Under the pieces are notes generated by a model. It saw nothing but the letters and a program-made list of their open reading frames with translations, was not told the DNA's origin and ran no database searches. A DNA stretch of 64,000 bases from a virus: positions 1-64,000 of IMG/VR virus record IMGVR_UViG_3300036770_003984; one strand, 5' to 3'. Position numbers and translations under genes: made by a program. Below are positions 4,463 through 57,304 of the stretch, piece after piece (position 1 is the stretch's first letter; every line of letters starts with the position of its first letter).

Positions 4463-4627
4463 TATAGAAGAAAGTTTTTTGTTTTGACTCAAGTCATATT
4501 TTTTTTGGGTTAAGGTCATCTCCAAAATTGATTTTCATCATCGGAAACCGAAGTGTTATAAACTATATATTGTGGTATGAAAAATAATCAAACACAAAAT
4601 ATTTTAAAATTTAAAAAACACTTTATT

Positions 4628-6028
4628 ATGAAAACTTCAATCTTAGTTCAAATCATTTTCTTCTTGTCTTTACAGTTCTCTGTATTTGCACAAATTACTT
4701 CACAATCACTAAACATTAACCCTACTAGAAATTGTCCAACACAAATCGATGGTGACATTATGGGTCAATCACAATTATGTGAGCTTAGTGAATCAACTCC
4801 TATCAAATATGAAGTAAACCCATCTAATAACATAGTTTCATATGTTTGGACAGTACCTCAAGGTATGGCAATATTCAGAGGACAGAATACTAACCAAATT
4901 TTTGTTGATACAGATTACTCATTTATAAATGGTTATGTTACAGTAAAAGGTATCAACACTTGTGGACAATATACTCAAACAGATTCATTCTATGTAGATT
5001 TGTTACCATCAACACCCATATTTCAAACATCTACTGATATGGTTAGAGCTGACCAAATTTACACATATTCTGTAAACCAATTGAATGGAGTTACTTATAC
5101 TTGGACAGCACCTTATGGTTCAGTAATTATGAGTGGTCAAGGTACTGAAACTGTATCAGTTAAGTTTAGCCAAAGTTTCAATGGTGGATTTGTGGAAGTA
5201 TATGGTGAAAATGGTTGTGGTGTTAGTCAACTCAATCAAATTAATGTAACACTTGACAATGGTTCAAACACACAAAGAATTTTATCTCAAACAGATAGAA
5301 ACTACAATAACTCTAAAACTACTTTGGCTGGTGATATTGCATTCCATTCAAACCTAACAAACGCACAATTTAGTGATACTATTAAAAATGGTGATGTTTA
5401 TTACTTTGAAGTTGTTCTTCAAAACTATTCTCAAAACCCAATGGATAGTGTTTATCTAAAATATTTCCTTAGCTCTGACCCAAACAACTATCAATTAGTT
5501 AGAATCAAACGTCTTGAAGCTGGTGAAGAATATACACTACCTGTATTAACAATCCCAACTGATGGATTAAATGGTGACGAAGAATTATCTTTGGAATTAA
5601 ATCCTGACCAAGAAAAACCTGAAACAGATTATACAAATAACTTTTTGAAAGTTCCGTTCTATGTTCAACTTACAACAACAATGGTAACTAAATTTATAAC
5701 AGATAATAGTGTTAATACTTATAATTACCCAAATCCAGTTGTTGACCATACTCAATTCTATGTTAAACTAGGTTCAAACTTTAGCAAAACTGAAAGTGTA
5801 TTAATTAACATCTTTGATTTGAGTGGACAATTTGTTAAAAGAATTACAATTAACAATTCAAATGACCAAGGTGAATTTATCTCTGAAGTTTGGAATGGTG
5901 AAAATGAAAATGGTAATACTTTAGAAAGTGGTGTTTATTTCTACACAATTAACGCAGTTAACAATCAAGGAAATCTTAAAACGTTTGCATCAAATAAACA
6001 CATTAAAATTGTAAAATTGAAGTCTTAA
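4628..6028 (+). CDS. secreted protein with PKD-like/Ig domains and T9SS type A C-terminal sorting domain
   Basis: Likely start is MKTSILVQIIFFLSLQFSVFA|Q (signal peptide plus Gln) rather than 4577. Has PKD-like repeats (TYTWTAPYG...SGQGT...ENGCG), a CARDB-like LELNPDQEKPETDYTNN segment, and a CTD (NYPNPVVD...IFDLSGQFVK...LESGVYFYTI...KIVKLK). Confidence 0.85.
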   Translation: MKTSILVQIIFFLSLQFSVFAQITSQSLNINPTRNCPTQIDGDIMGQSQLCELSESTPIKYEVNPSNNIVSYVWTVPQGMAIFRGQNTNQIFVDTDYSFINGYVTVKGINTCGQYTQTDSFYVDLLPSTPIFQTSTDMVRADQIYTYSVNQLNGVTYTWTAPYGSVIMSGQGTETVSVKFSQSFNGGFVEVYGENGCGVSQLNQINVTLDNGSNTQRILSQTDRNYNNSKTTLAGDIAFHSNLTNAQFSDTIKNGDVYYFEVVLQNYSQNPMDSVYLKYFLSSDPNNYQLVRIKRLEAGEEYTLPVLTIPTDGLNGDEELSLELNPDQEKPETDYTNNFLKVPFYVQLTTTMVTKFITDNSVNTYNYPNPVVDHTQFYVKLGSNFSKTESVLINIFDLSGQFVKRITINNSNDQGEFISEVWNGENENGNTLESGVYFYTINAVNNQGNLKTFASNKHIKIVKLKS

Positions 6029-6048
6029 TAAAAGTTTATTATCAAATT

Positions 6049-6078
6049 AAAATCCTCACATTATTGTGGGGATTTTTT
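6049..6078 (+). terminator. intrinsic terminator
   Basis: aaaatcctcaca-ttat-tgtggggatttt followed by a T-run. Confidence 0.8.
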
Positions 6079-6141
6079 TATTAAAATATATTTCCTTTTG
6101 ATAAAACTGATGTTGGGTATATTTATTATAAAAAGAATAAT

Positions 6142-7047
6142 ATGAACGAACAACTAATAAAAAAAATAATTGCAGAATATAAAAATGGGGTAGGTTCTAC
6201 TACCATTTCTAAAAAACTACGAGTACCTAAAGAAAAAGTTTTAAAAATATTAAAAGAACAAAATCTTACAAGAAAAAGAGATAGATGTTCAAAACTATCT
6301 ATCATACAAGAAAATGAAACTTTTAAAATAGAAAAAAAATGTCCGATGTGTGGTAATATTAGTTTCATCACAACTAAAAATAAAACTACAGCATGTAGAA
6401 ATTATTACAATACTATAAATAAAAAATCAAATTGCAAAAAATGTAGTTTAATTTTACAACAAGGAGAAGGTAATCCTTTCTTTGGGAAAAAACATACAGA
6501 ACAAACAAAAAGTAATATTTCACAAAGTAGAAAAGGAAAGGGTATAGGTTTAGATAACTCTATGTCTAAAATTGAACACAGAAAAAAACTTTCGGAGTCA
6601 TTAAAGAAAAGTTGGAAAAGTGGTAAACTTGAAGAAACAAGAAAAAAAATGTCTGAGGTATTAAAAAAGACGAGAAGACAAGGTAAAATAAAATCAGTTA
6701 TTAAGTCAAAAAAAGAAAATGAGATTTGTAATATAATTAAAAAATTGGGATATGTTGTTATCTCCTCGTTGAGAGTTGATACTAAAATCTGTGATATCTA
6801 TATTCCAAAACTTAATTTAATTATTGAATACTTTGGTGATTATTGGCATTGTAACCCAATTAAATATGATACCGATTATGTTAATGTTAAAAAAAATCTA
6901 ACAGCTAAAGAAATTTGGAAATATGATGAATCCAAACTTGAATTAATAAAAAGTTATGGTTATAATTTAGAGGTAATTTGGGAAAGTGAACTCAAATTAA
7001 ATAACGATAAATTATTAACTATAATTAAAAAATATGATTCAAAATGA
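6142..7047 (+). CDS. free-standing homing endonuclease (HTH, Zn finger, NUMOD3, Vsr/EDxHD-like nuclease)
   Basis: CPMCG and CKKC Cys pairs; NUMOD3 GNPFFGKKHTEQTKSNISQSRKGK; C-terminal CDIYIPKLNLIIEYFGDYWHC nuclease motif. Confidence 0.8.
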   Translation: MNEQLIKKIIAEYKNGVGSTTISKKLRVPKEKVLKILKEQNLTRKRDRCSKLSIIQENETFKIEKKCPMCGNISFITTKNKTTACRNYYNTINKKSNCKKCSLILQQGEGNPFFGKKHTEQTKSNISQSRKGKGIGLDNSMSKIEHRKKLSESLKKSWKSGKLEETRKKMSEVLKKTRRQGKIKSVIKSKKENEICNIIKKLGYVVISSLRVDTKICDIYIPKLNLIIEYFGDYWHCNPIKYDTDYVNVKKNLTAKEIWKYDESKLELIKSYGYNLEVIWESELKLNNDKLLTIIKKYDSK

Positions 7048-8290
7048 TAATCAACCCCGGTTGGATCACAGAGAAAGAATAAGAGTACTTGTTCTGCCCT
7101 CGGATACGACTGGGGTTGGCTGAGGTAAATTCCGAAGTGTAGACCCCCATGTAATGTTACAGAATATGTACCCAACTGATTTTCATGTGGATATAAATTA
7201 TAACCCACCAATGGATGATATTAATTTTTGGAAACAATATCAGATAGTACACGCTCATAGAAGTATTGGTCAAAATTATAATGTTGTGCCTGATTTTATT
7301 AAAAAATTAAAATCGGAAGGAATTGTAGTAATTGTTGATTTGGATGATTATTGGTTGCCTGGTATTGAACACCCAATACACTCATTGATTGTTCAAGACA
7401 AGATACATGAGAAGATTATGGCTAACTTAAAAGTGGCTAGTTACGTTACTACAACAACAAGTATCTTTGCGGATGAGATAAGAAAATTAAATAGAAATGT
7501 TGTTATTTTCCCAAATGCTATAAATCCAGATGAACCACAATTTAAAGAACCAAACGAAAGTTCTGATAGAATCCGTATTGGTTGGTTAGGTGGGTCTTCA
7601 CATCTTCACGATTTAAAATTACTACAAGGATTTGTTCAAAAAAATATAAATCTTAAAGATAAAGTTCAATATGTTCTATGTGGATTTGATACAAGAGGTT
7701 CGGTAACTGAAATCAACCAAACGACTGGAGAAAGAAAACAAAGACCAATTAGACCAAAGGAAACTGTTTGGGCTCGTTATGAGGAAATATTTACATCAAA
7801 CTACCAAATTGTTGACCCAACTTATAAAAACTTTTTAATGGAGTTTAAAGAAGGTGAATATGAAAATATATCATCACAATCATATAGACGTGTTTGGACA
7901 AAACATATTAATACTTATGCCACAAATTATTCCAAGTTTGACATTTCAATGGCACCAATTAAAAACCATATTTTTAATAGGGTTAAATCACAATTGAAAG
8001 TCATTGAGGCAGGATTTTATAAAAAAGCTTTAATTGCTTCTGAAGTAGGTCCTTATACTATTGACTTGAAACATTCGTTAGAATTTGGTAAATTTGTTGA
8101 TGGTAATGCTTTGTTGGTTAAAGAAGAAAGAAATCATAGTGATTGGGCAAAATATATTAAGACTTTAGTTCATAATCCCAATTTAATTACCGACCTTGGG
8201 GAAAGATTGTATGAGAGTGTTAAAGACAAGTATGATTTAAGAAACGTAACCAAGACTAGAGCTGAATGGTACAAAACATTAATAAAATAA
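7034..8290 (+). CDS. GT-B glycosyltransferase interrupted by an in-frame TGA at 7121-7123 (probable recoding site)
   Basis: The frame of ORF 7154-8290 continues upstream to ATG 7034: MIQNDNQPRLDHRERIRVLVLPSDTTGVG*GKFRSVDPHVMLQNM. The downstream part has GT motifs (VDLDDYW, IGWLGGSSH, FNRVKSQLKVIEAG). Confidence 0.7.
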
Positions 8291-8294
8291 AATT

Positions 8295-9005
8295 ATGATT
8301 AAACAACCAATAACCAAGATTCTTTTTATGGACATTGAAACCGTTGGGTGTTGTCCAGATTATGATGTGTGTTCAACATTGAACCCATCTGTTGCCGCCC
8401 AATTTGACAAGTATTTTGATTGGTTTTTAAAAAGATTTCCTGAAGACTCTCATATTCAATACGACAAAAAAAATGATGTCTTTAGAACAAGAACTGGACT
8501 TGTACCTGAGTTTGCTAAAATTATCTGTATAAGTTTTGCATTTGTATTGGATGATGGGTCAGTTAGAAAACAAACATTTTTTGGTGATGACGAACATAAA
8601 CTTTTGTTAGATGTTCAAAAATTATTAATTAAATGTGGAAAACTTGATTTTTGGTTGTGTGGTCATAATCTTAAAAATTTTGATATCCCAATGTTGGCAA
8701 AACGTATGATTATCAATGGTTTAATGCCACCATCAATATTACCTTCTTATGATACCAAACCTTGGGAAATAAAAGCCATTGACACCAAAGAAATTTGGCA
8801 ATATGGTGCTTATACCTCAATAGGTTCTTTGGATTTGTTGTGTTCAAATATTGGAGTCGAAACACCAAAGAATGGTGAAGTAATTGGTCAGAATGTTCAT
8901 AATGAATATTGGGAAAAACAAAACTTAGAAGGAATAAAAGAGTATTGTGAAAAAGATGTAAATGTATTAATAGAAATAATTAAAAAATTAAAGGATTTGA
9001 AATGA
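8295..9005 (+). CDS. PolB-related 3'-5' exonuclease (DEDD)
   Basis: FMDIET (ExoI), GHNLKNFDIP (ExoII), EYCEKDV (ExoIII). Confidence 0.85.
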   Translation: MIKQPITKILFMDIETVGCCPDYDVCSTLNPSVAAQFDKYFDWFLKRFPEDSHIQYDKKNDVFRTRTGLVPEFAKIICISFAFVLDDGSVRKQTFFGDDEHKLLLDVQKLLIKCGKLDFWLCGHNLKNFDIPMLAKRMIINGLMPPSILPSYDTKPWEIKAIDTKEIWQYGAYTSIGSLDLLCSNIGVETPKNGEVIGQNVHNEYWEKQNLEGIKEYCEKDVNVLIEIIKKLKDLK

Positions 9006-42830: not shown

Positions 42831-44642
42831 TCAATCATCTAAAAGTTTTTTCAGATGTACTTCCATTTCACCCAAATAATTTCTTACTTTTGACAAATCA
42901 ATATAAGAATCATCCTCAGTTAATGAATCACTTTCCAATAGAATATTTAAATTATTTTTATTAATTGATTCTGGTGCTAAACCTGGAGGTGGGGGTGATT
43001 CTTCACCTCCAGGAGGTGGTGGTGGCATTCCTCCACTTTCTTCTCCTCCTCCACCGGGTGGTGGTGGTGCTCCACCTTCAGTTGTACCTGACTTAGTTCC
43101 ATAAAGTTTATCAATATTATCAAATAAACCAGTATGTGTTATAATTGTCGCAGTATTTGTTAATTCAGCACCAACAGCCTTTTCAATCCTTTGTTGTTGT
43201 AAATCAAGTTTAATTTCCTCTTCAGAGAATCCCATAATATGTTTCTTAGCCCATGTAACTGATGTTGGTGAAATACCTTCAATTGCCGTAACACATTCTT
43301 TATAAAGTGCGACTTTCTCTTTCCATATATCAATTTTAAGTAAATCAGCCTGACTTGATGGATTTGTCAAACCTAAAGTGAAGTTACCTAACTCATCTTC
43401 AAAACCTAAAAGGAATAAATGTATAATGGCGATTTTATTTAATTCGGCAACCATACATTTTTGTATTCTATTGATTGTTCTAGCAAATCTTATATCAATC
43501 AAAGAAAGATTTTTACCATCACCAACAGGTTCTTCAAAACCTAAGAATGCTTTAGGTACACGTAGAGCGGTTAATAATTTCTTTTGGATATATTCAATAT
43601 CGGCAATTTCACCTAAATTCGCACCACCAGGTAATGTTTCAATTGGCATAGTTTGAGCTGGGTCTCTAACAGGAATAAAATAATCTTGGTCAACAGCCAT
43701 TTGATTAAATCTCATATCAACATTACCAGTCTGAGAATCAACAACTTGACTACGTTTAAACTTATTTGCAACACGTTGTACATAAGCTTCAACATCTTTA
43801 TCATCCATATTTCCAACAAAGACTTTGAACACCCTTCTTTCTGGTGCTCTTGAAGTTCTATATATCAACATTGCATCCTCAGATAATAATAATTGTTTCC
43901 AAATACGTCTTGCCTTTTCCAACATTGATGTACCATATGGAAGTTTTCTATCATCACCAAATAAACGGAAATGAGCAATTTCCCAAGAATTAAACTCCAT
44001 GTCTTTAACTTTCCATTTGAATCTTAAACCTTTGTTTTCAACGGGGTCTTCAACATTTTGTCTACCAGCTTGCGTAGGAGCACCTCGTTCCAAACGTTCA
44101 ATTTCAATGTTTGGTAGTTGCATACAACCAACAATACCTTTTTCTGGATCAAGTTTAAGGTAAACAAAATTATCACCATACTTACAAGTATTTCTTGTCC
44201 ACATTGGTAAGTTTGTGTTAATATCCAAAATATTATTAAATAAATCAGCTAAAATAGATTTAATCCTTTTTGACTCTGAATATATCTGTAACATATTACC
44301 ATTTTGGTCAACAGTTGTTGATTCCTCACCATAAATGTCTAGTGCTGCAGATATTTCTGGTGTATACTCCATAGATTCGTAATCGTAAAATGAGGCCAAT
44401 CTAGTTGGTTCGTAATATACTGCTTGGGTATATAGATTACTTTCAATTTTAGTCCATTGATTAGCTAAATAATATGTTTGTTGAGCTTGTAATAACTCTT
44501 TATCATATTCTTGTTTGGATGTTGTACGTAATAATTCTTTTCTATCAAACTTATATGTTGGATAGTCTTGATTTAAAAGTTCATTAGGTCCGAAGGCTTG
44601 AGATAATCTTTGCCATACGGTATATTTGTTATTATTTTCCAT
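42831..44642 (-). CDS. portal protein (T4 gp20-like)
   Basis: MEYTPEISAALDIYGEE, LLSEDAMLIYRTSRAPERRVF, QDYFIPVR; Pro/Gly-rich tail. Confidence 0.95.
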   Translation of the reverse strand: MENNNKYTVWQRLSQAFGPNELLNQDYPTYKFDRKELLRTTSKQEYDKELLQAQQTYYLANQWTKIESNLYTQAVYYEPTRLASFYDYESMEYTPEISAALDIYGEESTTVDQNGNMLQIYSESKRIKSILADLFNNILDINTNLPMWTRNTCKYGDNFVYLKLDPEKGIVGCMQLPNIEIERLERGAPTQAGRQNVEDPVENKGLRFKWKVKDMEFNSWEIAHFRLFGDDRKLPYGTSMLEKARRIWKQLLLSEDAMLIYRTSRAPERRVFKVFVGNMDDKDVEAYVQRVANKFKRSQVVDSQTGNVDMRFNQMAVDQDYFIPVRDPAQTMPIETLPGGANLGEIADIEYIQKKLLTALRVPKAFLGFEEPVGDGKNLSLIDIRFARTINRIQKCMVAELNKIAIIHLFLLGFEDELGNFTLGLTNPSSQADLLKIDIWKEKVALYKECVTAIEGISPTSVTWAKKHIMGFSEEEIKLDLQQQRIEKAVGAELTNTATIITHTGLFDNIDKLYGTKSGTTEGGAPPPPGGGGEESGGMPPPPPGGEESPPPPGLAPESINKNNLNILLESDSLTEDDSYIDLSKVRNYLGEMEVHLKKLLDD

Positions 44643-56923: not shown

Positions 56924-57304
56924 GGGGAGTAACTGGTATCGATTGACATTGTTGGTTATTAGGGGCATGTCAGACCTAAACTAAGTCTGTTAAACTGGTT
57001 TGAAACGATAGACGGCAACGTTATCAACAAACTTTCTGCAGTAGGTTTAATCCGTGCTGAAGAAGCAGTAGTAGCCTAGTCAATAGGGTATTACTTTCGA
57101 GTCGGGGTGCATTAACTCAGGAACAGGAGCACTATAGGGTTGTCTAATCAATTCTCATCCCTAAAAATGAATTGACCGATTTTGTTGATTTTGGGTGTAT
57201 AAAAATCAAATAGCTCGGAACATTGCGAATAATGTTGTCCTAAGCATGTAGTCCTTAGTAATTGAGATGGGCAAGAATTGGGTTCGATTCCCAAACTCTC
57301 CACC
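56924..57304 (+). ncRNA. ssrA: tmRNA
   Basis: 5' GGGGAGT pairs with 3' ACTCTCC-A-CC, giving the G3:U70 Ala identity pair; T-arm ttggg-ttcgatt-cccaa; gcatgt segments at both ends; tag ORF 57014-57079 GNVINKLSAVGLIRAEEAVVA*. Confidence 0.92.

Follow-up and report, generated by a model that had tools for sequence, protein, structure and literature searches.

To our knowledge, T4 gene 60 with its homologues is essentially the only case of programmed translational bypassing known in bacteria and phages. For gene 60, bypassing has been proposed to be propelled by a 5′ stem-loop that folds as the mRNA leaves the ribosome, and a take-off stem-loop holds the take-off codon in its 5′ side (10.1101/2022.08.31.505936; 10.1101/2024.12.09.627546). 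We have analyzed a GC-rich stretch (positions 7050-7149) of IMG/VR virus record IMGVR_UViG_3300036770_003984. The stretch lies in the window, that is, the whole DNA under study, which comprises the first 64 kb of a 128.5-kb phage contig with a GC content of 28-29%. It corresponds to roughly the first 40 codons of a glycosyltransferase (GT) gene, since the ATG at position 7034 opens the GT frame; this frame runs on the plus strand to position 8290 and is interrupted by a TGA at positions 7121-7123. We consider it probable, at roughly two chances in three, that the stretch forms the RNA component of a mobile homing-endonuclease cassette whose conserved structures flank a likely 6-nt hop of the ribosome over the stop codon of the GT gene. 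The structures are present, conserved and restricted to interrupted GT alleles, and the gaps in these alleles follow the pattern described below.

The locus shares with the T4 gene 60/MobA element (Manning & Atkins) matched Gly codons for take-off and landing, a stop codon that immediately follows take-off, a stem-loop whose 5′ side contains the take-off codon, another stem-loop 5′ of the first and able to re-form behind the ribosome, a homing-endonuclease gene directly upstream and a host gene that has been given a new start. The two differ in the gap, which is 50 nt in gene 60 and 3 nt, in frame, here (2-41 nt in relatives), and in the host gene, which codes for a topoisomerase in T4 and for a GT here. 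In the endonuclease encoded here, NUMOD3 and I-TevI-like DNA-binding motifs are present, and no likeness to MobA was detected. Moreover, the 5′ hairpin is the best-conserved element of our locus, whereas its counterpart is unconserved in the gene 60 family, and the two hairpins found here share a strand and exclude each other, unlike those of T4 gene 60. The GT cassette is an analogue, not a homologue, of the MobA/gene 60 element.

Synthetic stop-hops, in which 9 nt specify one amino acid, were obtained in E. coli (Weiss et al. 1987, as summarized in PMC5009743), and the GGC UGA GGU sequence found here has exactly that form. According to the same summary, the synthetic hops were of low efficiency and came from constructs without dedicated stimulators, whereas the present site is natural and belongs to a conserved gene with conserved RNA structure. 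No natural in-frame stop-hop was known to the authors of that 2016 review (PMC5009743), and full-text literature searches revealed no report of bypassing in a phage GT gene. The Byp elements of Magnusiomyces capitatus mitochondria, as they are portrayed in 10.1101/2022.08.31.505936, resemble the stretch: they are mobile-element-like and GC-rich, their genome is AT-rich, and ribosomes bypass them from one matched codon to the other, the codon that follows take-off being slow to decode. In that account, they are 27-55 nt long and mitochondrial, number 81 across many genes and come without an endonuclease gene; here, in contrast, a single gene has a single site, with a shorter gap, and most of the GC-rich part is translated.

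In the window allele, the take-off codon GGC (Gly) at positions 7118-7120 is followed by the in-frame UGA (7121-7123), which makes up the entire coding gap, and by the landing codon GGU (Gly) at positions 7124-7126, after which decoding would resume at AAA 7127. The rest of the GT frame (7127-8290, plus strand) is open and has a PHROG match, which assigns the gene to the glycosyltransferases (E 1e-45). A tblastn-confirmed scan yielded 80 related GT loci; relatives with 64-83% identity occur on more than 80 phage contigs. Forty-two distinct alleles are free of the cassette and encode an uninterrupted MSKIKVLVLPSDxxGVG-KFRSVDPH; the window allele and a minority of the relatives have a longer N-terminus and GVG-stop-G-KFRS. 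In the window allele, 29 residues lie ahead of the take-off codon; they showed no likeness to the nascent-peptide signal of gp60, although no search aimed at one was made. A hop from GGC to GGU would give GVG-KFRS, just as in the cassette-free relatives.

Scans of viral and metagenome contigs by sequence pattern brought the total of distinct Gly-stop-Gly alleles, the window allele included, to 50, which fall into four length classes (117, 120, 123 and 126 nt). In 50/50 of them take-off is from GGC or GGU, at a position that the patterns fixed as GGN, while cassette-free relatives mostly have GGU or GGA there. The landing codon is GGU, GGC or GGA in all alleles and the stop is UGA or UAA in the 50. 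When the stop position was left free in the scan, no family member with a sense codon at this place was found. Other alleles have gaps of different length at the same codon: GGU-UA-GGU in the 2-nt gap class (allele L207), where a UAG overlaps the landing codon; GGU-UAACUAAA-GGU in the 8-nt class (L127-L129); and, in the 41-nt class (L028), GGU followed by 41 nt that include a 10-bp hairpin and then by GGU. In allele L028 (L028:1309-1355), a single sense codon (GCU) lies between the take-off GGU and a UAA, the gap hairpin is made of G/C pairs, and the endonuclease gene upstream is reduced to a 45-codon remnant.

The gaps of 2, 8 and 41 nt all shift the frame, and none of them is followed by a start codon; many Gly-stop-Gly alleles likewise have no AUG 3′ of the stop. 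Purifying selection acts on both sides of the stop: the ratio of nonsynonymous to synonymous polymorphism (pN/pS) is 0.26 before it and 0.11 for the eight codons after the landing codon. The gap classes, the varied stops, the Gly flanks and the purifying selection therefore point to a translational hop rather than to readthrough or an alternative code. Readthrough proper, in which a near-cognate tRNA would decode UGA to give GVG-X-G-KFRS, two residues longer, with the structures as stimulators, could yield a full-length protein from the window allele, whose gap is in frame (the flanking frames differ in the gap-2, gap-8 and gap-41 alleles), and RNA structures 3′ of a stop are known to stimulate readthrough in several viruses. 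It cannot, however, serve the alleles with frame-shifting gaps, and it accounts neither for a stop that varies among UGA, UAA and UAG by allele and is never replaced by a sense codon, nor for its constant Gly flanks in these alleles, where skipping restores the exact ancestral spacing of a Gly-rich loop that is intact in the 42 cassette-free alleles. We therefore regard readthrough as improbable.

Several other identities for the stretch were considered and rejected. Genetic code 4, TGA reassignment, selenocysteine and a suppressor tRNA are at odds with the ordinary use of TGA as a stop in this phage, where it terminates 21 of the 119 long open reading frames (ORFs), with the lack of suppressors among the 24 tRNA genes of the phage contig (0/24) and with the UAA and UAG codons of the relatives. 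A group I intron or an intein does not fit an insert of only 6 nt, counting the repeated Gly codon, with translated flanks. A structured-RNA family or tRNA is unsuitable for a translated stretch that is conserved at the protein level and has no Rfam match; the Rfam and tRNA search of the window passed only a tmRNA gene at 56924 and nothing at 7050-7150.

The composition of the stretch sets it apart from the window. Its GC content is 0.50, compared with a mean of 0.282 (standard deviation 0.060) for 100-nt windows, or about +3.6 standard deviations. The codons that the initial annotation had singled out as atypical for the genome are indeed rare in the ORFs of the phage, at 0.3-6% of their families: CGG (3 of 1039 Arg codons, 0.3%), CTG (24 of 2661 Leu codons, 0.9%), GGC (35 of 1866 Gly codons, 1.9%), CCC (61 of 1055 Pro codons, 5.8%), TCG (63 of 1972 Ser codons) and ACG (63 of 1759 Thr codons). 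The four pairings proposed in the same annotation can all be read from the sequence at the positions given for them: 7052-7060 with 7110-7118 (9 bp with one G-U, extendable to 12-13 bp, 7051/2-7063 with 7107-7118/9), 7076-7083 with 7088-7095 (8 bp, loop AGUA), CCUCGG 7098-7103 with CUGAGG 7120-7125 (6 bp) and 7112-7117 with 7142-7147 (6 bp). GGGGUU is common to the first and the fourth.

In the minimum free energy (MFE) fold, positions 7051-7119 of the plus strand form a compound 5′ hairpin of about 27 bp that begins 17 nt past the GT start codon. It consists of an outer stem (7052-7063 with 7107-7118, plus U7051-G7119), middle pairs (7066-7073 with 7099-7104) and an apical hairpin (7076-7083 with 7088-7095). 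The MFE of the plus strand of 7034-7160 is -38.6 kcal/mol, with a z of -3.09 relative to dinucleotide shuffles (2/200 as good), compared with a z of -0.80 for the minus strand of the same segment. For the segment from the AUG to the take-off codon, the native MFE of -34.3 was better than that of 1000/1000 synonymous shuffles under each of three nulls: genome codon usage (-12.7, z -7.3), codon permutation (-19.7, z -4.4) and GC-matched synonymous sampling (-15.8, z -5.9). For the full 126 nt, z ranged from -3.3 to -4.8. The same segment has a mean MFE of -30.8 (z -4.46) in the 50 cassette alleles, while the equivalent 87 nt of the 42 cassette-free alleles give -13.5 (z -1.19).

In every allele, the RNA from shortly after the AUG up to the take-off codon forms a single compound hairpin, 60-69 nt long and with about 25 bp. 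In 54/54 alleles, a set that spans the 3-, 8- and 41-nt gap classes, its last paired base lies -1 to +2 nt from where the take-off codon begins; L207, with its 2-nt gap, was folded separately and forms the same hairpin. The outer stem has at least 7 bp in 50/50 alleles, and the pair adjoining its CCCC:GGGG core is a standard one in 49/50, with all six types (AU, UA, UG, GU, GC and CG) represented. Within the 117-nt class, 98.5% of cells are paired, compared with 29-52% in slid controls, and the covariation score is 0.160 versus 0.090 in shuffled alignments (0/500 as good). In L028 the stem is retained through two compensatory double changes, AACCCC/GGGGUU being replaced by GACGCC/GGCGUC. The 5′ arm occupies three different registers across three length classes, and for this reason the stem was counted per sequence and per class; the registers were picked per sequence, which biases these counts slightly toward pairing. 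RNAalifold applied to a mixed MAFFT alignment recovered the take-off hairpin alone. The RNA structure formed by the 5′ hairpin is real, and compensating base changes accompany its conservation.

The 5′ arm is encoded by a cassette-specific N-terminal extension of the GT (MIQNDNQPRLDHRE; 7034-7075, plus strand), which is missing in the 42 cassette-free relatives, whose product begins MSKIKVLV. In the 117-nt class, the extension has a relaxed pN/pS of 0.54 and a pS of only 0.19, compared with 0.50-0.62 in adjacent codons. Its sequence varies by lineage, yet pairing with the codons that immediately precede the take-off codon is always kept. The extension thus looks to be selected mainly as the 5′ arm, as the initial annotation had suggested. 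The broader proposal made there, selection of the sequence for RNA structure, is borne out by the synonymous-shuffle z scores, the strand specificity, the covariation and the restriction of the hairpin to stop-containing alleles; one outcome named there as refuting, a stability no better than that of synonymous shuffles, did not occur.

The structure might instead regulate the endonuclease/GT transcript independently of recoding, whether as attenuator, RNase processing site or stability element, with the GT of cassette-bearing phages truncated, split or dead. Free-standing phage endonuclease genes are often under RNA-structure control, and the start of the hairpin 17 nt past the GT start codon speaks for such regulation. 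We nevertheless hold such a non-recoding regulator to be unlikely: in all cassette alleles, some 400 codons of the GT frame remain open and 64-83% conserved, codons on either side of the stop are under purifying selection, and many alleles have no start codon past the stop. In addition, the 3′ end of the hairpin is fixed to the take-off codon in 54/54 alleles regardless of the gap, a lock that a general regulator does not need.

Another explanation is that the recoding and the 6-nt insert serve only to destroy the target of the endonuclease in DNA, the RNA fold being a by-product. The bypass insert of T4 protects DNA from MobA (10.1101/2022.08.31.505936), and here the recoded patch adjoins the endonuclease gene and is missing in cassette-free alleles. 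By this analogy, the insert and the recoded codons may protect DNA from the cassette's own endonuclease, and such immunity may well exist in addition to an RNA role. As the sole explanation it is quite unlikely, because it leaves the fold unexplained: many G-U pairs are used and the folding is strand-specific, both arms show compensatory changes, synonymous sites of the extension are constrained and GC-matched synonymous shuffles fold far worse.

A second, alternative hairpin (7112-7147, plus strand) pairs GGGGUU 7112-7117 with GACCCC 7142-7147, plus weak inner pairs; take-off codon, stop and landing codon all lie within it. In relatives, GGGGUUGGYUGAG pairs with the downstream Ser-Val-Asp-Pro codons. 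This take-off hairpin has 12-14 bp in most relatives; in the lineage of the window, where the Ser codon is AGU or AGC, it is reduced to 6 bp plus weak inner pairs. In the 117-nt class, 97.9% of its cells are paired, with C-G, U-G or U-A at the third base of the take-off codon. The 36-nt segment has an MFE of -13.8 (z -2.9) here and a family mean of -15.6 (z -3.25), versus -5.9 (z -0.27) in cassette-free alleles. The GGG codon (18/18 cassette versus 3/42 cassette-free alleles) and the CCC codon (17/18 versus 8/42) are near-invariant in cassette-bearing alleles only. Since GGGGUU(GG) is used by both, the 5′ hairpin and the take-off hairpin are mutually exclusive. The initial annotation had seen here a structure that switches between conformations, and two conserved, mutually exclusive stems do exist, although the two conformers come within about 2 kcal/mol of each other only in the 117-nt class. 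The pairing of 7098-7103 with 7120-7125, proposed in the annotation to sequester the UGA, is present in the window but is kept only in its close lineage (98% paired in the nine alleles of the 126-nt class versus 37-52% in other classes), and it is incompatible with the complete outer stem.

The conserved GGGG could also be read as an internal Shine-Dalgarno (SD)-like element that, 2 nt before the take-off codon, pushes the ribosome in place of the stems. In the programmed +1 frameshift of prfB (RF2), the ribosome shifts by +1 to a codon that overlaps the first, with SD:anti-SD pairing as a requirement; Bacteroidota make little use of such pairing. This reading is very unlikely: although GGGG-UU-GGC-UGA resembles the prfB layout of an SD-like, G-rich element a few nt 5′ of the P-site codon, a short spacer, a shift codon and UGA, and GGG is near-confined to cassette alleles, L028 carries GGCGUC instead of GGGGUU, matched by its 5′ arm, the CCCC runs that serve as partners are both conserved and the adjoining pair covaries, and gene starts in this phage lack SD sequences, its host being perhaps a member of the Bacteroidota. 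Unlike in prfB, the move would be 5-44 nt onto a non-overlapping matched codon, with the G run lying within covarying stems.

We infer the stop-hop and a role of the structures in it, the latter from their association with the site and by analogy with T4 gene 60. The cassette would have rebuilt the 5′ end of a GT gene of a T4-like jumbo phage, leaving GGC UGA GGU. Peptidyl-tRNA-Gly would leave GGC while UGA idles in the A site and would re-pair at GGU. About 12-15 nt 5′ of the P-site codon are held inside the ribosome, as footprints indicate. When GGC occupies the P site, the exit channel would hold the 3′ arm of the outer stem (7107-7119), RNA 5′ of 7105 would already be out of the ribosome and the rest of the hairpin could have re-formed behind it. 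Each emerging base would then pair with the waiting 5′ arm, and zipping of the outer stem would pull the mRNA forward during the wait at UGA; once the mRNA had moved by 6 nt, GGU would occupy the P site and AAA the A site. The take-off hairpin is weak here and strong in relatives; it may obstruct the release factor, like the A-site stem-loop of T4 gene 60. In its fullest form, a natural and efficient in-frame stop-hop that is driven by the 5′ hairpin, tuned by the competing take-off hairpin and carried as the immunity/repair module of an endonuclease cassette, with variants that hop 5, 6, 11 and 44 nt, this picture has in our judgment a little better than an even chance of being right.

Several points weigh against the stop-hop. 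In the window allele, the 5′-hairpin conformer is favoured by about 6.8 kcal/mol; together with the weakness of the take-off hairpin, this bias makes a true switch doubtful there. Within the window's own class (nine alleles, 96% identical), variation is too low for covariation to be seen, 123/500 shuffles being as good. All alleles descend from one ancestral mobile cassette, so that part of the conservation is shared ancestry. The scan patterns fixed GGGG and GGN, and a scan with the Gly codons left free gave one extra allele, L198, with an unmatched AGU-UAA-GGC. It is a minus-strand match at about oriented position 2289, and a match between its codons needs tRNA-Ser(GCU) to re-pair on GGC, with U-G at the first position. 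The products of a hop and of readthrough differ by only two residues in the window allele. Contigs from three metatranscriptome studies bridge 7118-7126 with the stop kept and no indel, but they show only the presence of the stop-containing form, with possible DNA carry-over in the libraries. Finally, the 5′ stem-loop is not conserved between clades of the gene 60 family, and the analogy for the role of the 5′ hairpin is for that reason not firm.

The metatranscriptome contigs at 6987-7273 come from three libraries, are 161-290 nt long and are all centred on the structured stretch, which may reflect a stable RNA fragment, conserved sequence or the way in which the runs were found; stretches without RNA-library contig cover carry no meaning.

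The cassette's distribution is that of a mobile element. The endonuclease-like gene (6142-7047, plus strand), which is predicted from domain matches, codes for 301 amino acids and its final codons overlap the GT start codon (ATG 7034). Its product matches Pfam NUMOD3 (E 1e-7), the PHROG homing endonuclease and HNH endonuclease families and, weakly, the I-TevI DNA-binding domain 1i3j. Relatives of the endonuclease with 56-90% identity occupy the same position in cassette-bearing loci, and the 5′ hairpin and the recoded patch are confined to alleles with the stop-containing insert. Two cassette-free GT alleles (L006:2945-2975 and L019:1647-1677) carry a 31-nt endonuclease remnant directly before an intact GT start, with 100% (L006) and 90% (L019) identity to window positions 6938-6968; judging by sequence, the cassette appears to have been lost and the gene restored ('hit and run'). 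Endonuclease relatives of lower identity (41-49%) lie about 750 nt before the GT start in L007-L018, L054, L069 and L070, whose GT genes are without insert, extension or hairpin.

If the fullest form of this picture is right, programmed translational bypassing would have a second family in the GT cassettes, one that is independent and far simpler. Natural alleles with varied gaps, stops and arms and the same hairpin geometry number in the dozens and would offer a testable minimal system of about 120 nt, in which one could ask what drives the forward movement of the ribosome after codon release. The cassette would also be a second instance of a selfish endonuclease that brings an RNA device by which the harm done to the host gene is repaired during translation. 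Genes of this kind are liable to be annotated as split, truncated or pseudogenes.

The phage encodes a T4-like portal protein and a full-length tmRNA (56924-57304, plus strand; Rfam 87 bits) with a tag peptide ending in EEAVVA. Its 24 tRNA genes form a cluster on the minus strand beyond the window (66331-82127 of its own contig) and include tRNA-Gly(UCC) and tRNA-Trp(CCA); none reads a stop. A nucleotide search with positions 6000-8300 against the phage collection gave 0 matches. Just upstream of the endonuclease gene, positions 4577-6028 (plus strand) code for a PKD-domain protein with a type IX secretion system (T9SS; Por/CHU_C) sorting tail, and the presence of such a tail on a phage protein hints at a Bacteroidota host. 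This gene is missing from the closest relatives L004, L006 and L022 and is therefore a separate insertion. Other GC-rich islands of the window are unrelated to the finding at 7050-7150; the strongest of them (GC 0.61; 42949-43124, minus strand) is a Pro/Gly-rich low-complexity linker near the C-terminus of the portal protein.

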